The position numbers and the translations under genes are program-made. Positions 9,201 to 59,077 of a stretch of 64,000 bases of DNA are shown piece by piece. Numbering within the stretch: the stretch's first letter is position 1; each line of letters begins with the position of its first letter. Source of the stretch: a virus (lineage: Duplodnaviria > Heunggongvirae > Uroviricota > Caudoviricetes); IMG/VR virus record IMGVR_UViG_2778260992_000001. One strand, given 5' to 3'. The notes beneath the pieces were generated by a model. That model made no database searches, was not told where the DNA came from, and saw only the letters and a list, made by a program, of their open reading frames with translations.

Positions 9201-9740
9201 CGATCGGCTGAAATTAACGTGCTCATGACACGGATGGCGGCTGAAATGGGTTTAGGTGATGAACTAATCCGCCCCAGCATTGGTATTAAGCCGAAAATCA
9301 TGATCATTCTGGACAATGCGAACGGCAATGATGCTCGAACCGGTTACTTTATGGAGAACGGATACGACGATTTTAAGGCCAAGTTGCTGACGGCCGGAGA
9401 TTTGCGTATGGGCGATCTCTATGTCACAGGCGTTTGCAAGAAGGTTAAAGACAAAGAAAAAGACTACACCAAAGACGAGATCGGCCAGTTCACCGACTTT
9501 ATGCGTGAAGAGATCAATCTGGTGCGTCCGACCTATGTTCTGACGTGTGGTAGTCGGGCGACGTCGCTCTTCAACAACAAGAGCAAACCATCCGACCTGG
9601 TTGGACGCAAAGAGTATCTGCCAGAGCTGGATGTGACCGTTTTCTACGGCTTTAACCCGAATATTTTGTACTTTCGTCCAGAGGAAGGCGAGAAGCTGGA
9701 AGCAATTCTGGCAGAGGTAGCGGAGACTATTAGCAAATGA
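6222..9740 (+). CDS. dnaE: DNA polymerase III alpha-type (DnaE family) replicative polymerase
   Basis: 1172 aa; N-terminal PHP-like region; conserved GPGRGSSAGSLVAWCIGIT and LDLPDADLDF motifs of Pol III alpha. Confidence 0.9.
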   Translation: MKALMVRTDFSLGESALKAENAVKIAREAGYTAVISADSMNIASVIPLQRAAGDDMAVICGVKLNIVDDPTYEHRAKLVKESKGCMESLERGRNYSFTALIKNEQGYRDICELMTVANTREQFYFVPRLSLEQLVSTYAKGNIILLTSDIGSVFQRNDFAKIISTLITAGGKDNFYSVVYPHPTPFYDQINVRAMKVASALKIEPVAFYPAYYESIDDADIKDIAHMVMNNIKIDQPHRLRIPHQRDNAVNGRRHLLEALKAFSVRMDVPVTAAMASTTQDTIIDACTWRWHELPPALPKMADDEPATLMKLAVAGLRKRLTTKEFGYTPPASENRIYVERLKYEMDTLTRLGFCGYFLMVRDLMNHSREAGIPVGPGRGSSAGSLVAWCIGITNVDPIRHGLLFERFINPERLDLPDADLDFSQARRHEVIEYLNERYGEDYVAGIPNFTYLGAASALRDTARIYGVESADMAVSKELKNVEDDSLPLEELREQLASLDKYATKYPDAFNAACKLQSLMRGFGRHAAGMIVAGVPLTERTPVERRGDARCIAFDKRYCEAMGLIKLDVLGLATLDLLDSAKRYIKENTGEDINLDAISLEDRKVLDGFAAGYTQGVFQLESGPMRKLLKDLGGGIEPMSFKTVVATTALFRPGPIQSGMLDDYVSVAKGFMTPESLHPVLDELTAETNGVILYQEQTMNATRLLAGFTMAEADGVRKAIGKKDMEKMKSMGEKFIVQAQAGWIDVELEDGTTQRIHRAEHFKCEDGTLKTVEEALEHGAKLPINAVRVTASHPGLSEMKAKEIWTAFEKNGAYQFNKSHSVAYSLISYQSMWLKTHYPAEFFAAALTILGEDKHQGLVKDALTYGIRVLPPDVNVSSNRIEIRTLEDGSQVLLAPFSAVKGCSENGCQAIMRAREKVGGKFESLAQFEEAVEKRACNSRVRESLQKVGAFASIEPGSLPATDPERLRDQAELMGNLVIDAVKASRPFEMNPKRSAEINVLMTRMAAEMGLGDELIRPSIGIKPKIMIILDNANGNDARTGYFMENGYDDFKAKLLTAGDLRMGDLYVTGVCKKVKDKEKDYTKDEIGQFTDFMREEINLVRPTYVLTCGSRATSLFNNKSKPSDLVGRKEYLPELDVTVFYGFNPNILYFRPEEGEKLEAILAEVAETISK

Positions 9741-9874
9741 ACAAAGAGAACACCATAAAGGTGGTCAAAGAATTTATGGAAGTGAACAGATTGGCGATGT
9801 GAGACAGTATCGGCTGAAGCGTCAAACCAGAGTAACGCGATCCAACATTTTTAGTAAGAAAGTCGCTTAATTGT

Positions 9875-17584: not shown

Positions 17585-17593
17585 ATGCAAACT

Positions 17594-17615
17594 GACTGCG
17601 GCACGTGCCGCAGTC
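17594..17615. terminator. palindromic stem-loop GACTGCGGCACGTGCCGCAGTC
   Basis: Perfect palindrome right after the stop codon, before the iteron array. Confidence 0.5.
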
Positions 17616-17631
17616 ATATTTCATAGTCGTC

Positions 17632-18164
17632 ACCGCTGACAGCATACACAATCAATTACCGCTGATAGCATATCGAGAGTTTATCTCACCGCTCACAGCA
17701 TACTTTACTCGATTTTTTACCGCTGACAGCATACTTAAGACATTGCATGAATAATGTGTACCGGTATGGGTATAACCAGAACAAAATTACCGCTGGCAGC
17801 ATACGAAGGTCTGACATATACCATTAATTACCGCTGATAGCATATCCAAACAAAAATTCCTCAATAAAACACCGCTGACAGCATACGTTCTATCAGGGAG
17901 CAGCAGGCAATAAATGCCTTTCACTACAAGCAATCAGCGCAACGGCAATAGAATGTTAGTGAGCGCAAACCTATATGGAATGCACTCTTCGAGGTTAGTA
18001 ACCACTGGGGAGGTATGCCAGAGCATTGAGTGGTGATAGATGATTTACCGCTCACAGCATACGTTTATCTCACTATACCGCTGGTAGCATATCTTTAACC
18101 GTTCACAGCATACTTTTCAGAAAAATAGCCGCTGATAGCATACATTTCACCGCTGACAGCATAT
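17632..18164. repeat. incA-like iteron array (12 copies of ACCGCTGACAGCATAC and variants)
   Basis: 16-bp direct repeats at irregular 25-45 bp spacing downstream of repA, as in P1 incA. Confidence 0.8.
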
Positions 18165-19258
18165 CAAAGCAGTTTGAGACTATTGGAAAGGATCTCAATC
18201 ATCTTGATATTTTCAGGCGTCAAATTCTGCGAAAGTTCGGTTATCTTGTTGATAATGTTCTGTTTGGCATCAATTTCCCCAGCTTTCTCATCTGGTTTTT
18301 TGGGTTCGATGTCTTCAGGTTTTGGCGGTGCGACTTTGAGTTTTGGATTGCGGCTGTGAATCTGGATATAGATCGACCGCCCACGCTTAATCTCGCTGTA
18401 TTCGAGATAGCCCAAATCTTGGAGAGCTTTTAATCCGTTACGTATAGTCTGATTCTGCGAGCTGACATTCCTGCTACTCAAATTGAGTCGCGCACGCAAT
18501 CGAGCAAGCGATACCGGCGCAGGCTTGGTTGGAAGACTTTCGATGAAGGTGTACAGAGCCTGTGCTGTTTCTTTGCGTGGTAGCTTATTGATAACCTTTA
18601 ACTGCAAAAGAACCTTATGGTCAAAGCGATATAGTTCGGCCAGCTTCGGTTCTGCATAGAACACCACCGTATCTTTCTGCTCGTTGTAGTCCACGCTATT
18701 GATGAGGTGCACCATCAGAAGCGAGATCTTGTTAGAGCCGTCGACGTTCTTTTCTTCATACGTTCTCTGGAAAGACAGAGTTGTACGCATGATCTTCAAA
18801 AGACTGTTTGTAAGCCGGTCGCGGAGTGTTTTGCGGATCTGTGACGATGGATAGCCACAAAACTTCGCAAATTTCGTGATGCTTAACTCGACACGACCAT
18901 TAGGTTCGCCGTATTCTGCCAGCGAACGCACAACGCCCACCCACGTTTTGAAATCATGATCCATGTCCAGGCGAGGACCGGTTATCTTGATATCGGAATA
19001 GCCTTCAGAACGGGCTACTTCGAGCTGGACAAGCTCCTTTGAAGCATCGATCTCATTTGGCTTGTTACGTTTACTGTATTTTGTTCCCTTAAGCGTGGGG
19101 ACGAACAACCCCAGTCGCATCAACGCAATTGGTTGGACTGTATTGTTGCTATTAGGGACAAGTTCCCCTGTGTACAATTCAAGGGAACCTTCTTCAAAGT
19201 TGTCGATGTTATCTTCTACTTCTTTGTTATTTTTACCTTTTTTATTTTTTGTGGACAT
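18164..19258 (-). CDS. repA: plasmid replication initiator RepA (P1 RepA-like)
   Basis: Blocks NSNNTVQPIALMRLGLFVP, EGYSDIKITGPRLDMDHDFKTW, AQALYTFIESLP and IQIHSRNPKLK closely match P1 RepA as remembered; start set at MSTKNK because the upstream track extension runs over the iterons. Confidence 0.85.
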   Translation of the reverse strand: MSTKNKKGKNNKEVEDNIDNFEEGSLELYTGELVPNSNNTVQPIALMRLGLFVPTLKGTKYSKRNKPNEIDASKELVQLEVARSEGYSDIKITGPRLDMDHDFKTWVGVVRSLAEYGEPNGRVELSITKFAKFCGYPSSQIRKTLRDRLTNSLLKIMRTTLSFQRTYEEKNVDGSNKISLLMVHLINSVDYNEQKDTVVFYAEPKLAELYRFDHKVLLQLKVINKLPRKETAQALYTFIESLPTKPAPVSLARLRARLNLSSRNVSSQNQTIRNGLKALQDLGYLEYSEIKRGRSIYIQIHSRNPKLKVAPPKPEDIEPKKPDEKAGEIDAKQNIINKITELSQNLTPENIKMIEILSNSLKLL

Positions 19259-19278
19259 GTGGACACCTTTGTCATTCA

Positions 19279-19380
19279 ACCGCTGACAGCATACTTGATT
19301 TGCCGCTGACAGAATACCAAAAACAGTTGGCAGCATACGGTGAACCGCTGACAGACTATCAATTACCGCTGACAGCATAC
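19279..19380. repeat. origin iterons (about 5 copies of ACCGCTGACAGCATAC family) upstream of repA
   Basis: Same repeat as the downstream array, between repA start and the GATC cluster. Confidence 0.8.
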
Positions 19381-34613: not shown

Positions 34614-35207
34614 ATGATTGCAGCCGAAAAAATCAAACAGCGAAAGCGCGACAACTCTCTTCGTGACCTCTGGAGAACACCTGATTGGCTGTTTTCTGCC
34701 ATTCAACGTTATCTTGGGGTGACATTTGATGTTGACGTTGCCTGCAACAAGGACAATGCAAAGCTGCCTAATTTCATAGGCGTTGAGCGTGATGCTTTGA
34801 AATCTGAATGGGGACAGCCAGGTACAATTGCCTTCCTCAATCCACCCTACTCCAAAATCTCCCCCTGGATTGATGCTGCTATACGTGAGCAGGCTCGCGG
34901 AGTTACAACAGTGATGCTAATTCCTCAATCCCTCGATACAAAGTGGTATGAGCGTGCAACAGAGTATGCGAATGAGACGATTATTCTGTCTGGTGGCCGC
35001 GTAGCGTTTGTCGAGCCTGACGTCAATTTGGGTCAGGTAGAAGTAAACATCAACCCCGGTGGCAGTATGCTCGTTGTTTTTCGAGGATTCTGTCAGGACG
35101 CTGGGCACTCTATAAGCAAGATCCCTTTGGACGTAATGAAAAGTCTGGGAGGGTATGATCCTGCGAATGTGGTCAGGAAAAAAAGACCATCAAAGAAGGC
35201 TGCTTAG
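34614..35207 (+). CDS. dam: phage-type DNA N6-adenine methyltransferase (Dam family)
   Basis: WRTPDWLF and NPPY motifs; start at ATG (track ORF begins at a TTG codon, 34602). Confidence 0.8.
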   Translation: MIAAEKIKQRKRDNSLRDLWRTPDWLFSAIQRYLGVTFDVDVACNKDNAKLPNFIGVERDALKSEWGQPGTIAFLNPPYSKISPWIDAAIREQARGVTTVMLIPQSLDTKWYERATEYANETIILSGGRVAFVEPDVNLGQVEVNINPGGSMLVVFRGFCQDAGHSISKIPLDVMKSLGGYDPANVVRKKRPSKKAA

Positions 35208-35392
35208 TTTGTTCTGGCGAGTGTAATTAACCTGCTTCTGTATATAAATAACTACATATTAATTATTAATATACGGAAGCAGGCTGTTTTGTATCAGAGA
35301 CTCCCAGACCTGAACACCACTACAGAATCCACTAGAACCCCTTCTCAGACGCTTTAAAATCGATTTTATGAACCACTTTAAGGAAAACTAAC

Positions 35393-35623
35393 ATGTCATA
35401 CCCGACCAATGTTGTTGCGCTCGTAGAGAGCGATTTTCTGGCTAAGGCTCGTGAAATGATGAAAGATCGCGAGCAGGCTTTCAACTTGTACGAATGGGCA
35501 ATTAAGTGCTTGCATCTTGGGGAGCATCGCGAACTTGTTGAACAGCTTTTAGGTGAGTTGATCAACGAGGTGTTTGCCTTGAATGTTCAACTACATGGTC
35601 GAGAAAATAACCAATCGAAATGA
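35393..35623 (+). CDS. hypothetical protein
   Basis: 76-aa ORF. Confidence 0.4.
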   Translation: MSYPTNVVALVESDFLAKAREMMKDREQAFNLYEWAIKCLHLGEHRELVEQLLGELINEVFALNVQLHGRENNQSK

Positions 35624-36204
35624 TAGATAAGTACAAACTATTCATAAGATGGATTGTAAGTGCTAAGATCTGATAGTTTCCAGTCGTAGACTGGAGACTC
35701 GACCTGATGGGTGGGGGTAAGCGTCACTGGCGTCAGGTTTAAAAAAGCTCACTACCAGCGTAGAACCGGTGCCGTTTAGGTGTCGGGGAAGGGGGAACCA
35801 AAGTGAGCGGAGACAAGGGTCACTTTATGATTGTCGAGTCTGGGATGTTTCGAGAGGTTGAATCCAGTACTCCCCTTCATAAAGTGTGGGAAGATCTCGG
35901 TTCTGGGGTGCTGTCATCCATAACTTCCCAAGTCTAAGCTGGCAGTAGACTTAGACCATAGCTTTTCAGGTTATGAAACGACCAGGTTGGTGAGGAATTT
36001 TATACTCACCTCCCTGGGAGAGTATTACCTGAAAAGACAACCTCTCACTTCGTTCGAGGTGAACTTCACTCACTTCGTTCGTTCAGTTCAGGTTTATAAA
36101 AACCTGTACTGGGAAGTAATTTGTTTATTTTAATAATTATTACACGCACGCGTGTGCGCACGCGCGAGGAAAAAATCGGCGCGGCGCTTGATTCAGGAGT
36201 TTAT

Positions 36205-36795
36205 ATGACGTCGAAGACACCAGCCCGGTCGCAAGCAAAAACTCGCAAAAAAGACAAAAACAAAAATTCTCCCCGCACCAATCCCACAACGCCTGTCGTA
36301 GAGTTCAATCCCCAGCTTAAAACCGTGAAAATCTTCAGTGATGGCTCTTGCCTTAAAAATCCGGGTGGCCCGGGCGGTTACGGTATAGTTCTCCAGTATC
36401 GTGGTGAGGAACGCGAGTTCTCAGATGGTTTTCATAGCACCACCAATAACCGCATGGAGATGATGGGGGCACTTATCGGGCTGGAGCGTTTGAAATATCC
36501 ATGCAACGTTATTTTGCACTCTGATAGCCAGTATCTGAAAAACGGCATGACACAGTGGATGAAATGGTGGAAACGCAATGGATGGATGACTTCTGACAAA
36601 AAACCGGTAAAGAATGTTGATCTGTGGAAGCGTCTGGATGAGGCCGCAAGTCGACATAATGTTCGCTGGAAGTGGGTTAAAGGTCACGCCGGGCATCGTG
36701 AAAATGAAATATGTGATCGACTCGCGAAGATCGCAGCTTTTTCCGCAGCAGATATGCCTCACAAGAAAGATATTGGTTTTGTTTATAACAAGTAG
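36205..36795 (+). CDS. rnhA: ribonuclease HI
   Basis: [20 protein letters not shown] ... HSDSQYL ... WVKGHAGH ... NEICDRLA motifs; start at ATG after CAGGAG RBS (track ORF starts upstream in a GC-rich palindrome). Confidence 0.85.
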
Positions 36796-36943
36796 TAAGT
36801 AAGTGTTTACCTATCATTTTAAATCATGTATCTTATCGGCGTCAGGATGACAATGTGTCGGTAAGACACAGTTCCAGGATGGAACGAGAAAGGCGGCTGG
36901 CAATCGCCAGCCGCAACTCTTTCTGACACTGGATGGAGTCCAC

Positions 36944-37438
36944 ATGGCACGTCAAACCTATTTCACTTCTGCAACTAAACGTCCTCGTTCTTTACGTCAA
37001 ATTTTGGCCGAATTATTTAGCGGTCGTGTTATGTCACGTCTTGATGAACTAGAGACTACCGTTCGGTTGCTGAATGAACGTTTAGATAATCAAGCGTCAG
37101 TTGTTGCGAACGTGGGGGCGATTGTTGCCTCTGGTTCTTCACGCGAAGCGAAAAGTACACGGCCTTTAGTGAAGGAGAAAAACAACAAGGACAGTTCGAA
37201 TGGAAAATTTTCAAAGAAAGAGGCTGAAACCAATGGCCTACGTTCTCATTATAGTTTCACTGGCGACGGTAGCCGTTCCAGCCGGCCAGAGCCTTTTGAT
37301 GCCGGATTCATCCATCACCACACCTTCGTCGACGACAATTACCACCACTCCAGTGGAGCGTCCTGTCACTCTGGATGGGATGGCGGTGGATGCGATACCT
37401 CAAGTTCATCCAGTTACTCAGGATCATGCTGTGACTAA
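36944..37438 (+). CDS. hypothetical protein (reading frame uncertain in the 3' half)
   Basis: N-terminal 70 aa look protein-like; distal part is low complexity and overlaps a better-looking ORF in another frame (37200..37451). Confidence 0.3.
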   Translation: MARQTYFTSATKRPRSLRQILAELFSGRVMSRLDELETTVRLLNERLDNQASVVANVGAIVASGSSREAKSTRPLVKEKNNKDSSNGKFSKKEAETNGLRSHYSFTGDGSRSSRPEPFDAGFIHHHTFVDDNYHHSSGASCHSGWDGGGCDTSSSSSYSGSCCD

Positions 37439-40079: not shown

Positions 40080-41765
40080 ATGAATACAGCCCTTTCCATC
40101 ATCGACGATGCCAACTCAAACACTGCTATCGATTATCGTCAGGAAATGAACGTCATCCACGAAATTGTGGCCGAGTGCGAGAAGGAGATCGCCTTCATGT
40201 ATCAGGTTCACGACTTCGTTTATGGAGACGAACGCCACAACATGATTAATCGCCTGCTGCAACTGAACCACCGACCAGATGAAGAACGCTCACGTTTGAA
40301 TCGAGCTTGGCTGGATAAAGTCGATCTGGAATGGGTGAAACAGAATATTTGGGCCGAGTACTGGAGGAAGGTCACGGATATGACTAACGTTCTGCTGATC
40401 ATGCCAGCTTCCCGTCGCGACGAGTGGCGTGAGCAGTTTATCGAGGGTAAGCAGGAAGTCATCAAAACTGACAGAACCGGCTATCAGATGAAGGTAAAAG
40501 AGTTCGTTGGTGTACCGGAGTTCAAAGCAGAAACGGTCATACCCACGATGCTTAATTTGCTGAATGACAGGCACAAATATCTCTCTGAGCGCGTGTATGG
40601 CTTGTTTAAGGCGCTGAGTCCTGCGCACAAGACAAATAAGACAAACGGTTTCAGCGAACGTCTGATAATCGCTGACTGCATTTCTGATTTCTGGCGGGAC
40701 AGCGTTAGCGTGAACTATCGCAAAGAGGACTACATCGACGATCTGCGTGTCTTGCTTCATTTCTTCGCGCACAAAGAATTTATTACCATCAACCGCACTG
40801 CTGAGGTGCTATCAGCTGCGTATAGGGCAAACGACTGCCAGACCGGTGACTGGATGAACGTCGATGGAAATCTGATGCGCGTGAAGATGTTCAAGAACGG
40901 CAACGTTCACTTTGAAATACATCCTGACGTGGCCTGGAAGTTGAATGAGGTGCTGGCTTACAGTATGCCTGCTGCAATCCCCGCGCCATGCCGAACTGCG
41001 CCAAAAACACGGGCACCAAAGCAGTTCGGTTTAATCCAGAAGACGATCTCCGTGCCGGTTCGCACTGCGCTTCGTGACGGGCGATTGAGCAAAGACAAAG
41101 GCGTATGGTACTTCTCTGATTCAGCTCTCCAGAAGTCGCAGGTGGAAGAGCTTGAGCGCACACTGAGCTTCATTGGCGGCGTGCAGGAGAAAAAGCACTG
41201 GCAGTTCCCGTATGAGATCGGCCATACGCTAAATACGATTGTGGCTACCGGATTAATACCGGATACAAAATCACACCAGTTCTACCCTACCCCACGCTTG
41301 ATTGCTGAGTACGTTGCCAGAGCCACTGAATTGAAGCCTGGTGAGAAGCTGCTGGAGCCTCAAGCCGGACGTGGGGATCTTCTGGCCTATATTAACGCCG
41401 ATCTGGAAGATGTTACCTGCATAGAAATCGCACCTCTCTTCGCTGATATCCTGCGTGGAAAAGGGTATACGAACACGATTTGCTGCGACTTCATAAAGTG
41501 GTCTGAGGACAACGCAGGTTATCAGTTCGACAAAATCGTTATGAACCCGCCGTACTCGCTTGGTCGTCATAGAGAGCACACGATGGCTGCGCTGGGGCAT
41601 CTGAAAGTCGGCGGGCGTCTTGTAGCAGTATTGCCGGGCACTGCGCCAATACTGGACTGGATGACGATGGATAATTACGTTTATGCCAGAGGGAAGTCGT
41701 TTACCAACGAGTTTGAAGATACCGGGATCACAGTCAGCGTATACGTTTTCAAACGCGTTAAATGA
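40080..41765 (+). CDS. N6-adenine/N4-cytosine-type DNA methyltransferase with about 400-aa N-terminal domain of unknown function
   Basis: C-terminal motifs FYPTPRLIAEYV, LEPQAGRGDL (AdoMet) and NPPY (catalytic); large uncharacterised N-terminus. Confidence 0.6.
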   Translation: MNTALSIIDDANSNTAIDYRQEMNVIHEIVAECEKEIAFMYQVHDFVYGDERHNMINRLLQLNHRPDEERSRLNRAWLDKVDLEWVKQNIWAEYWRKVTDMTNVLLIMPASRRDEWREQFIEGKQEVIKTDRTGYQMKVKEFVGVPEFKAETVIPTMLNLLNDRHKYLSERVYGLFKALSPAHKTNKTNGFSERLIIADCISDFWRDSVSVNYRKEDYIDDLRVLLHFFAHKEFITINRTAEVLSAAYRANDCQTGDWMNVDGNLMRVKMFKNGNVHFEIHPDVAWKLNEVLAYSMPAAIPAPCRTAPKTRAPKQFGLIQKTISVPVRTALRDGRLSKDKGVWYFSDSALQKSQVEELERTLSFIGGVQEKKHWQFPYEIGHTLNTIVATGLIPDTKSHQFYPTPRLIAEYVARATELKPGEKLLEPQAGRGDLLAYINADLEDVTCIEIAPLFADILRGKGYTNTICCDFIKWSEDNAGYQFDKIVMNPPYSLGRHREHTMAALGHLKVGGRLVAVLPGTAPILDWMTMDNYVYARGKSFTNEFEDTGITVSVYVFKRVK

Positions 41766-46720: not shown

Positions 46721-46825
46721 GCAATAGTACGATAAAGAGGCCCCATGCTCTTGATGGGGCCTGTAGCAACTAGCGTTATGGACGCTGGTTTACGTACTCA
46801 ATGATCGCTTTGATAATCGCGAACA

Positions 46826-47127
46826 TCGGCGGCACGATTTTGAACAGTAAGTTAACCATAACAGGCCTCACTTAGTTTTATCGCGCCTAGCTGCAAATAC
46901 CTTTGGGCTTGCCTTTGCAGTTGCAATATCTGTAGTCGCCAGATACTTACGGCACGATTTCGAGTTAAGGTAAGGTTTTAGAGTCACCAAAAACCTGGAC
47001 TTAAATCTTCTTTGAGAACAACGATGTTTGGTAAATGGTCATTATTACCTAGCATGACGGCTCAACGTTTCTTGATGAATCCAGTACATTCGGTTAATCT
47101 TAGCTCAGTCGCCAGATACTTATGGCT
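46826..47127. repeat. interleaved direct repeats (GTCGCCAGATACTTAYGGC x2; GGCACGATTTYGA x2), parS-like
   Basis: Contain TCGCCA hexamers and CGATTTCGA/CGATTTTGA, resembling P1 parS box B and box A as remembered. Confidence 0.35.
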
Positions 47128-47157
47128 CAGGAACAGAGGCGCAAACTCTGTTTCCTT

Positions 47158-47190
47158 TTAAAAAGCCCAGCCTAGTCAACTGGGCTTTTT
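47158..47190. terminator. bidirectional rho-independent terminator
   Basis: AAAAAGCCCAG-cctagtcaa-CTGGGCTTTTT. Confidence 0.7.
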
Positions 47191-56824: not shown

Positions 56825-57307
56825 ATGAATTTTATCGCTACTGTAAACGCACCCGCACATGGCAATATCGCTGTAACGTTCTCTGACATTGAAAAACGAG
56901 TACTTGGTGCATGGCGCGACAATGAGACGGTAGAACTGTCAGCACAAGAAAAATGCATTATTGCACGCGACATCATTGGCAATCGTCGTTACTCGCGGGT
57001 ATTTGAAAAAGCGTATGTGGTAAATTCTGGATTCGGAACGTTCGTCTTTCCGGTGCGCTCCGGGCGATTCTGCCAGTCCAAGCTGATTGAGTTCGCTACG
57101 CAGATTTCTGTCTGGATTAAAACTCAATCGTCGTTCAAATTTTCCGACGATGAAGCAGTATCGCAGGGGATGCGGATCGCCAACAATGCAATTAAATGCA
57201 AAAACATTACGTATACCGCTGGCGTTGATACATGGAAACTGTTTTGCGCTAACTTTATGCTGAATGTATACGCAAGCAACCGCATCCACATCCTTGATGG
57301 CGTGTAA
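56825..57307 (+). CDS. hypothetical protein
   Basis: 160-aa ORF; terminator hairpin GGGCC-agaaac-GGCCC downstream. Confidence 0.5.
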   Translation: MNFIATVNAPAHGNIAVTFSDIEKRVLGAWRDNETVELSAQEKCIIARDIIGNRRYSRVFEKAYVVNSGFGTFVFPVRSGRFCQSKLIEFATQISVWIKTQSSFKFSDDEAVSQGMRIANNAIKCKNITYTAGVDTWKLFCANFMLNVYASNRIHILDGV

Positions 57308-58426: not shown

Positions 58427-59077
58427 TTACGCTTTGAAAGCATCAGCTAAATAATTGTAGAAATCATTTTTAATGAAGCGATATTGCTGAGTACCAGCTT
58501 TCGCGCTCCCAGCTCCTTTGACTTTTTCAACAAGTCCAAGACGTTCGCAAAGATTGATCAACTGGTTGGCTTGAGTATAACCAGCGTCCAATTTAATTTC
58601 ACACGCTTTTTTAGCTTCATTCATTAAATCGAAAACAGCGCCATTAGTGAACGTGTCGATCTCGTCGTTAATCATATCGATTAAAGCGAATACACGAGAT
58701 CCAGACATATCAGCGATGGAATAAACGCATTTACCAGATTTAATTGATTTAACCAGATAAACCAGTTTTTCCAGAGAATAACTATTAGTCATTGCATCAC
58801 GGAAAAATACTTCTGGCGCTTGTTTGCTTGCTTTAATCGCATAGTAGAAAACAGAGCATAATTTTTCGTCTTCTACTGCGTTTACGACGTTGTTGATGAA
58901 GTAAGCAAGTTTAGTGGTCGCAGCTTGCATATTTGCTTTGTCTGCTTTAGTGTGCGTACCATTTTTATAATGTTCGTTATATGTTTGAGTTGCCAGATCT
59001 GCTTTTTCGCGCAGTTCATCGGATACAATGGAAGCAGCTTCAATGATGGATTTTTTAGAAATGATAATGTTAGCCAT
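58427..59077 (-). CDS. hypothetical protein (cassette gene 1), possible C-terminal winged-helix
   Basis: 216-aa ORF; sequence style (GCGCG-rich, AT-rich flanks) differs from neighbours. Confidence 0.5.
   Translation of the reverse strand: MANIIISKKSIIEAASIVSDELREKADLATQTYNEHYKNGTHTKADKANMQAATTKLAYFINNVVNAVEDEKLCSVFYYAIKASKQAPEVFFRDAMTNSYSLEKLVYLVKSIKSGKCVYSIADMSGSRVFALIDMINDEIDTFTNGAVFDLMNEAKKACEIKLDAGYTQANQLINLCERLGLVEKVKGAGSAKAGTQQYRFIKNDFYNYLADAFKA

Follow-up and report, generated by a model that had tools for sequence, protein, structure and literature searches.

Described systems and the phage-plasmid locus

Highly structured large RNAs of bacteria and phages are rare, and they have repeatedly proved to be ribozymes or unusual RNA-protein machines. 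We analysed a 64,000-nt stretch of DNA (IMG/VR record IMGVR_UViG_2778260992_000001; hereafter the window) that belongs to an Escherichia coli phage-plasmid of the SSU5/pHCM2 type. The gap at 35624–36204 very probably contains an independent gene for a structured non-coding RNA (ncRNA) of a new family, ~445 nt long (~35676–36120, + strand) and specific to phage-plasmids of this type. The 1.7 kb around the locus matched SSU5-type phage-plasmids, with 97–98% identity to Escherichia phages PhiR41_1, CMS-2020a and Cyrano (pLF82), 81% to Salmonella phage SSU5 and ~78% to Klebsiella phage-plasmids; the gap sequence was 100% identical to that of E. coli plasmid CP012114.1. The close relatives are referred to below as clade A, and a group of ~109-kb Enterobacter and Cronobacter plasmids, found through the 76-aa protein encoded upstream and carrying an RNA that is ~68% identical, as clade B. 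At some loci the same slot holds a second, unrelated RNA (type 2).

GOLLD and ROOL of phages and prophages, as well as HEARO and OLE, resemble the RNA described here in that they are hundreds of nucleotides long, have many covarying helices and invariant loops, reside on a mobile or viral carrier, possess their own promoter, and have a role that is unreadable from sequence. However, no model of these families matched the locus, and its carriers are phage-plasmids of Enterobacteriaceae and not Firmicutes or environmental phages; the RNA is also expressed in the lysogenic or plasmid state and lacks a tRNA neighbourhood. ColE1 RNA II, in which the promoter lies 555 nt from the transition GGAAAAA/CGCC, is similar as a ~500-nt transcript with many stem-loops, conservation at the nucleotide level and RNase H as the processing enzyme, and in clade A only the similarity extends to the succession of a G-rich RNA, an A-run and a GC-rich segment. 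The locus differs in that there is no homology and no antisense RNA I, the A-run motif is not conserved in clade B, an iteron/RepA origin is present, and the type-2 RNA is terminated.

The c4 RNAs of P1 and P7, CI of P4 and cA of N15 are ~77–100 nt long, are processed from the leader of a repressed operon, and pair with repeated downstream targets. Like these, the RNA studied here is made by a phage-plasmid in the lysogen, and the non-alignable versions that occupy one slot are reminiscent of heteroimmune c4 alleles. In contrast, it is 445 nt long, the Rfam C4 model did not match, and no complementarity above chance was detected between the RNA and the rest of the 64-kb window, which argues against a c4/CI-type mechanism within 64 kb. 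T4 oriF and oriG consist of a promoter directly followed by a ~50-bp unwinding element and are not known to include a long structured RNA. The phage-plasmid shares with T4 a set of replication and recombination genes (gp32, UvsY, UvsX-like, gp46/47-like) and a promoter-driven transcript followed by an AT-rich segment, but here the RNA is long and structured.

None of the 4227 covariance models of Rfam 15, which include GOLLD, ROOL, HEARO, OLE, 6S, tmRNA, RNase P, group I and II introns, C4, RNAI and CsrB, matched anywhere in the window at the gathering thresholds. When E values of up to 10 were allowed on 35200–37000, only chance-level matches to AT-rich hairpins appeared (best E = 0.13, eukaryotic miRNA models), none of them on the core, and searches of the clade B, clade C and type-2 loci were likewise negative. 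A blastn search (word 11) of 72,556 plasmids returned only SSU5-like, mostly non-mobilizable plasmids of ~105–120 kb and no ColE1-type similarity. No counterpart of RNA I was found: the RNAI model did not match, and the sole promoter-like site on the − strand (35682–35653) faces away from the RNA. A CsrB-like sponge was judged unlikely, as GGA motifs were not enriched over the expectation from composition and the only weak CsrB match lies after rnhA, the RNase HI gene. A literature search found no paper describing this RNA.

Conservation, base-pairing and transcription of the element

The element occupies an ORF-poor gap between the stop codon of a 76-aa open reading frame (ORF; 35623) and the ATG of the RNase HI gene (36205); an ORF-free region upstream of RNase H had been noted in the initial annotation. 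The only ORFs inside the gap, of 44 and 48 aa, lack conservation in relatives. Substitutions fall on the three codon phases without periodicity (55/62/51) and indels shift the frame; the region is non-coding. Other parts of the initial description need correction. The gap is not GC-rich (46.9% GC vs 45.6% in the window, the 62nd percentile of 561-nt windows), its only GC-rich part being a 24-nt alternating tract. It is also not the only long gap, since 17585–18163 (579 nt), which carries RepA iterons, is ORF-free as well, and 46721–47188 is a third (468 nt, with no ORF of at least 60 aa on either strand).

Across relatives the core (35676–36120) was 88–100% identical. In a sliding comparison with nine of them, 35700–36100 was 90–100% identical and 35850–36050 was 96–100% identical, whereas the flanking protein genes were 60–85% identical. 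In a comparison of the window with the whole Klebsiella phage pJN2-26, each of the ten 200-nt windows with the highest conservation in the 64 kb fell within 35741–36120, at 91–96.5% identity (median 76%, 99th percentile 89%). Judged by sequence identity, these comparisons demonstrate stronger purifying selection on the RNA core than on any protein gene in the window. Next in conservation (88.5–90%) came the 200-nt windows at 57001–57300, 9541–9760, 40341–40660 and 58621–58840. The element was detected in 687 of the 72,556 PLSDB plasmids (Klebsiella 310, Escherichia 195, Enterobacter 88 and Salmonella 49, S. Typhi pHCM2 included), in 12 phage records, and in 74/74 IMG/VR loci retrieved via the upstream 76-aa protein. 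Clinical Klebsiella, E. coli, Enterobacter and Salmonella widely harbour phage-plasmids of the SSU5/pHCM2 type, which carry resistance genes; the most conserved sequence of these elements is an unannotated 445-nt RNA and not a protein gene, and annotation pipelines leave it blank or call a hypothetical protein.

Because most of the core is invariant among close relatives, we searched for distant ones. An exact 16-mer scan of IMG/VR returned close relatives only, plus five chance matches. A metagenome scan yielded four clade B loci and no new clade, with a pattern that started with GGATCT and thus excluded clade A (AGATCT). One apparent relative of 79% identity (L243, Logan SRR8137545) had every C read as T, indicating a bisulfite-converted assembly, and was discarded.

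The + strand of the region folds with a minimum free energy of −172.1 kcal/mol (z = −5.8 vs shuffles), 30 kcal/mol better than the − strand (−142.6 kcal/mol). The RNAalifold consensus for 57 distinct clade A versions (alignment A2) contains 142 pairs; 99.3% of the pair cells were paired, compared with 37–49% when the partners were slid, and compensatory double changes were found in 11 pairs, compared with 0–1 in the slid controls. G·U cells (843) far outnumbered A·C cells (11) in clade A, although the structure was predicted with G·U allowed and the ratio leans that way. The excess argues that the + strand is the folding strand; a DNA cruciform or a − strand RNA does not fit.

RNAalifold gave a structure degraded by local misalignment when applied to a mixed MAFFT alignment of clades A and B, and long-range pairs that differed when applied to clade B alone. 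The structure obtained from clade A alone was therefore mapped on a purely sequence-based alignment that included ten clade B sequences. With this alignment 89.5% of the cells stayed paired (37–49% in slid controls), and double changes were observed in 39 pairs (controls 7–11) and 252 cells (controls 25–43), giving a covariation score of 0.267 compared with 0.055–0.086 in the controls. The central domain (35820–35962, on which model R1 was built) had double changes at 19 of its 39 predicted pairs. The loops and junctions of the RNA are invariant, and the 5'-terminal hairpin is represented in relatives by at least six unrelated sequences, all of which form a hairpin at the same place. These results show that selection acts on base-pairing of the + strand RNA.

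Individual motifs pointed out earlier fared differently. GTCTAAG (35932) and CTTAGAC (35950) form a true hairpin that covaries in relatives, but CTCCC (36010) and GGGAG (36016) are separated by a single nucleotide and cannot pair with each other; the consensus structure instead pairs CCUCCCUGG with CCAGGUUGG. Of the direct repeats, an exact 13-nt sequence, CTCACTTCGTTCG, is indeed present at 36044 and 36069, the second copy being missing in clade B, whereas the quoted 15-mer occurs once. The palindrome CACGCACGCGTGTGCGCACGCGCG was found at 36143–36166, where 24 nt alternate strictly between pyrimidine and purine; its length varies among close relatives and it is absent from clade B. Among the A2 versions both the (CA/CG)n tract and the following A-run (5–10 A; together 36143–36175) vary between near-identical relatives, with a shorter tract in pHCM2 and the L007 group. 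Such variation points to slippage-prone, Z-DNA-prone DNA. An anti-Shine-Dalgarno-like CACCUCC in one helix strand was dropped as a candidate, as it is not conserved in clade B.

Published RNA-seq data include part of the element. In the LF82 lysogen, CYRAN_81, listed as a hypothetical protein, is among the "morons" expressed 12-fold above the prophage background (PMC9928086, Table 1), and CYRAN_81 corresponds to 35803–35937, inside the RNA core. Normalised reads were 117 for CYRAN_81, 9.5 for the upstream ORF CYRAN_80 and 8.4 for rnhA, and the log2 values ranged over 6.8–10.35, 3.1–5.8 and 2.6–5.0, respectively (PMC9928086, S1 Table). The highest log2 values of CYRAN_81 were in the MB6 columns (PMC9928086), which we read as bacteria in macrophages at 6 h. 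RNA from the locus is therefore 12–40 times more abundant than that of both neighbouring genes in the plasmid state (lysogen). Given the step in RNA abundance from CYRAN_80 to CYRAN_81, the interval 35624–35803 must contain a promoter or else a strong boundary in RNA stability. A candidate −10 element with the pattern TAnnAT is invariant in the 57 A2 versions and in the 22 sequences of alignment A3 (TAAGAT in the window, TAAAAT in SSU5, TAGAAT in Klebsiella and TAACAT in clade B); it is preceded by TG in most versions and lies ~7 nt ahead of the 5' hairpin. On these sequence features, transcription probably starts near 35676 from the RNA's own sigma-70-type promoter. Most transcripts appear to end in or just after the U-rich stretch or the GC hairpin at 36121–36190, and in that case the RNA would not be chiefly an rnhA leader.

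The proposal of a structured ncRNA is thus strongly supported by covariation, strand-specific G·U pairs, a conserved promoter-like element, the peak in the published RNA-seq data, and a degree of conservation that exceeds that of the genes on either side. The absence of a transcript, the lack of conservation and a pseudogene remnant, which the initial annotation had named as contrary outcomes, are all three contradicted.

Downstream genes, a second RNA and rival explanations

RNase HI follows the RNA in most of clade A and at all type-2 loci, with two RNase H genes in L245. The phage-plasmid enzyme is of the chromosomal type plus an N-terminal extension, and the only matches to the RNase H protein in a contig search were chromosomal rnhA genes of at most 62% identity. 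In four clade A relatives other genes follow the RNA, the breakpoint lying directly past the A-run, and in clade B the downstream gene encodes either a DUF7557-like 200-aa protein or a Tad2-like (anti-Thoeris) protein, each behind its own sigma-70 promoter. Depending on the lineage, the spot after the RNA is occupied by a gene for a Tad2-like, a DUF7557-like 200-aa or a DUF262 protein or for RNase HI (~3431–3744 in L249–L251, L253 and L254; ~4105–4421 in L238–L240 and L252; 1766–2283 in L007), which suggests an accessory or anti-defence hotspot. Because the downstream gene varies among lineages and the clade B gene has its own promoter, the RNA is not a leader devoted to rnhA; RNase H is often, but not always, next to it.

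At the type-2 loci, found for example in K. oxytoca pCAV1099-111, K. pneumoniae CP027615 and assemblies L245–L247, the slot is made up of Dam, the small ORF, a gap of ~570–710 nt and RNase H; the copy of the small protein is 45–51% identical and the replicon types are different. No similarity between type 1 and type 2 was detected (nhmmer, model R1). The type-2 gaps are alike among themselves, contain compensatory hairpins and have a fold z of −6.2, and they show the same layout of palindrome, −10 element and first hairpin. In L255 and L256 the RNA ends in a canonical intrinsic terminator. Type 2 is present in 30 Klebsiella plasmids of PLSDB at 86–100% identity and is never annotated. That two unrelated large RNAs share one conserved slot suggests that the slot function is RNA-based and that the RNA carries specificity. 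In Moellerella wisconsensis pNX2019-MW3 (L257, 2726–4150) the small ORF is 45% identical, but both RNA types and RNase H are absent; the small ORF is followed by a 113-aa ORF, a ~970-nt gap and a type I restriction gene on the opposite strand.

The reading that we tentatively rank first is that the RNA is a trans-acting regulator or an RNA-protein scaffold linked to replication or lysogeny control. The RNA would start near 35676, open with the 5' hairpin and end around 36121–36190; the folded molecule would act in trans, probably with a protein partner, and would be tied as a regulator or scaffold to the replication or lysogeny programme of the element. This model is favoured because the loops and junctions are invariant, the downstream genes are exchangeable, the type-2 analogue is terminated and the RNA is expressed in the lysogen. 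A second RNA in the slot of elements with a different replicon type fits a specificity (immunity or compatibility) cassette, and the 76-aa protein, which precedes the slot in every lineage examined, is a possible partner.

Several observations weigh against this reading. The trans mechanism is argued from exclusion and analogy, since neither target complementarity in the 64-kb window nor a partner protein was identified, and the 76-aa protein matched no solved fold (Foldseek against PDB, nothing below E = 5), the result on which a Rop-like assignment was dropped. A consensus promoter scan listed no + strand promoter here, the proposed promoter, which scores 8 of 12, being below its threshold. 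The RNA-seq counts refer to a 135-nt window inside the element only, and we infer the start, end and strand of the transcript. No canonical terminator follows the RNA in clade A, and the U-run is missing from the Klebsiella version. The 5' hairpin could alternatively be the end of an upstream transcript, and in clade B the long-range helix 35810–35820/36038–36046 and parts of the 3' domain are unsupported.

The main rival, which we consider doubtful, is an RNA-primed (R-loop) lytic origin comparable to ColE1 RNA II, T4 oriF/oriG or the mitochondrial LSP/CSB, in which the transcript would stay hybridised at the AT-rich 36121–36142 and RNase HI would trim it to a 3'-OH primer for a T4-like or Pol III replisome. 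The surroundings are in keeping with such a role. In the curated Cyrano annotation the locus is part of a long series of rightward genes for replication and nucleotide metabolism (DnaB-like helicase, primase, ligase, Pol III alpha and epsilon, gp32-like SSB, UvsY, a RecA/UvsX-like protein, SbcCD, RuvC, RNR, ThyX and DHFR), and with the iteron/RepA origin elsewhere a second, lytic origin is unaccounted for. The frequent RNase HI neighbour, including the two genes of L245, and an AT-rich tract after the RNA in every clade agree with it too, as does a G-rich RNA (GC skew +0.14, runs GGGUGGGGG and GGGGAAGGGGG). The ColE1-like geometry, with ~497 nt from promoter to A-run, and the resemblance of GAGGAAAAAA/UCGGCG to the ColE1 transition hold for clade A only: GAGGAAAAAA/TCGGCG is kept there with an A-run of 5–10, but conservation of this sequence, of the GGAAAAAA-CG motif and of the alternating tract does not extend to clade B. 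RNase H is missing from the position after the RNA in clade B and in four clade A relatives. Moreover, the type-2 terminator releases the transcript, the RNA accumulates to high levels in the lysogen although a lytic origin would be expected to be silent there, cumulative GC skew has no inflection at 36 kb, no ColE1-type similarity (72,556 plasmid records) or RNA I match was detected, and T4-type origins are not known to have a long structured RNA between promoter and unwinding element. A broader idea, to which we also give limited credence, is that the slot holds interchangeable, unrelated large RNAs, each being the specificity core of an undescribed RNA-based system; this might be an RNA-primed, RNase H-processed lytic origin for a T4-like replisome, or a GOLLD/ROOL-like RNA-protein machine or self-assembling RNA that governs immunity or compatibility between co-resident phage-plasmids.

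A cis-acting leader, that is, an attenuator or riboswitch-like 5' untranslated region for read-through into rnhA and later genes, is improbable. The RNA lies directly upstream of rnhA in the same orientation, a GC-rich hairpin precedes the rnhA ribosome-binding site, no separate rnhA promoter is evident in clade A, and a 12–40-fold drop of RNA towards rnhA would be produced by an attenuator that is mostly "off"; yet the RNA is nearly constant while the gene after it changes (RNase HI, DUF262, DUF7557-like or Tad2-like), in clade B a good sigma-70 promoter separates the RNA from the gene that follows, known leaders are several times shorter than 445 nt, and no Rfam cis-regulatory family matched. 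The initial annotation had also raised a cis-acting DNA site (lytic origin or packaging site), which received no direct support. The gap contains no iterons and no directly repeated array of initiator sites but only one 13-nt pair, the iteron origin is 18 kb away, cumulative GC skew shows no inflection here, and in the related phage pJN2-26 the terminase genes are ~23 kb from the locus. A DNA-level site without RNA function (a protein-binding origin, pac site or recombination site) would equally be expected to show extreme nucleotide conservation, has an operator-like palindrome at its left edge and a Z-DNA-prone tract at its right, and would match the gene replacements that start directly past the A-run. 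We nevertheless regard it as very improbable, as the variation obeys RNA pairing rules (G·U tolerated, A·C not), the transcript is abundant, and the edge motifs are the least conserved parts. Least probable of all is a small protein gene (CYRAN_81 of Cyrano) or a decayed pseudogene: the 44-aa ORF with a GTG start (35803–35937) is intact in most of clade A and was annotated as a CDS in OV696614, but Klebsiella, L225, L242 and clade B either lack it or carry it frameshifted, L242 having no ORF of at least 25 aa, and the substitutions lack codon periodicity. A pseudogene is unlikely because the region is the most conserved sequence of the genome.

The function of the RNA is directly testable, since there are tractable hosts (E. 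coli K-12 with PhiR41_1 and LF82 with Cyrano), a natural non-homologous counterpart, and an RNA-seq signal that rises inside macrophages; how lytic replication of these elements starts and how they coexist become testable as well.

Feature coordinates and flanking motifs

Table 1. Positions of the ncRNA element, its parts and its neighbours. Coordinates are those of the window except for the type-2 RNA, for which they are preceded by the locus.
Feature	Position	Strand	Remarks
76-aa protein, upstream neighbour	35393..35623	+	three predicted helices; PHROG 5343 (function unknown)
Degenerate palindrome copy	35626..35639	.	GATAAGTACAAACT, a copy of GGTAAGTACTTACC; motif repeated ~10x between genes
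Promoter-like element	35641..35669	+	−35 TTCATA (35641–46), TG (35661–62), −10 TAAGAT (35664–69)
ncRNA core	35676..36120	+	~445 nt, many helices; most conserved sequence of the window
5'-terminal hairpin (helix 1)	35676..35698	+	4 pairs with double changes
Helix 2	35701..35739	+	ACCUGAUGGGUG.../...CACUGGCGUCAGGU, G-rich run inside; 5 pairs with double changes
Branched domain	35747..35808	+	closing helix GCUCACU/AGUGAGC, 3 of its pairs with double changes; includes invariant UACCAGCG and GGGGAAGGGGGAA
Central domain	35820..35962	+	143 nt; stems CACUUUAUGA/UCAUAAAGUG and GGGAAG/CUUCCC, GUCUAAG hairpin with conserved loop CUGGCAGUAGA
Long stem	35962..36037	+	CUUUUCAGGU/ACCUGAAAAG around CCAGGUUGGUGAGG.../...CUCACCUCCCUGG; inner helix 2 pairs with double changes; outer helix misaligned in clade B
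Conserved ACAACCUCUCACUUCGUUCGAGG and 13-nt repeats	36038..36081	+	ACAACCUCUCACUUCGUUCGAGG predicted mostly unpaired; repeats at 36044–56 and 36069–81; clade B has a GAGG-GAAA-CCUC hairpin in place of the second repeat
3' hairpin	36084..36111	+	CAGUUCAGGUUU/AAACCUGUACUG; 1 pair with double change
AT/U-rich spacer	36121..36142	+	23–50 nt in relatives; likely 3'-end zone of the RNA
Alternating tract and A-run	36143..36187	+	(CA/CG)n 36143–66, AGG, A-run 36170–75, then CGGCGCGGCGC; together able to form a GC-rich hairpin directly before the rnhA ribosome-binding site; motifs kept in clade A only, clade B retaining only CGCGCGAGR
RNase HI, downstream neighbour	36205..36795	+	Pfam RNase_H 1e-44; basic N-terminal extension of ~38 aa
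Palindrome 14-mers	2071, 11609, 14890, 20350, 25034, 29750, 34586, 36798, 41768, 55056		intergenic where checked
Type-2 RNA	L255:2726-3215, L256:2726-3215, L245:2727-3195		~450 nt; also in L246 and L247

The palindrome GGTAAGTnCTTACC occurs 10 times in the window when up to 3 mismatches are allowed (1.3 expected; 0/100 shuffles reach 10). Copies are found, for example, directly before the Dam start and directly after the rnhA stop, and a perfect copy lies directly next to the −35 element of the RNA promoter in relatives of the SSU5 type and of type 2. The palindrome may be the operator of a genome-wide regulator. The plasmid origin of the element is of the RepFIB type and consists of iterons and repA: 15 copies of CCGCTSRYAGCATA (0.14 expected), located within 17585–18163 and 19280–19379, flank repA (− strand ORF, 18164–19378) and together extend over 17633–19379.

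A long, near-perfect AT-rich hairpin (CCTGCTTC..GAAGCAGG, 35224–35287) is located between the Dam gene and the 76-aa ORF. It has equivalents at L242:2336-2455 and L245:2352-2447, and was the source of the spurious matches to Rfam miRNA models. On the other side of the locus, after rnhA, the segment 36796–36943 contains several hairpins, one with a GGA loop, and gave the weak CsrB-like match (E = 0.048); within it, a strong bidirectional terminator-like stem is present at 36893–36914.

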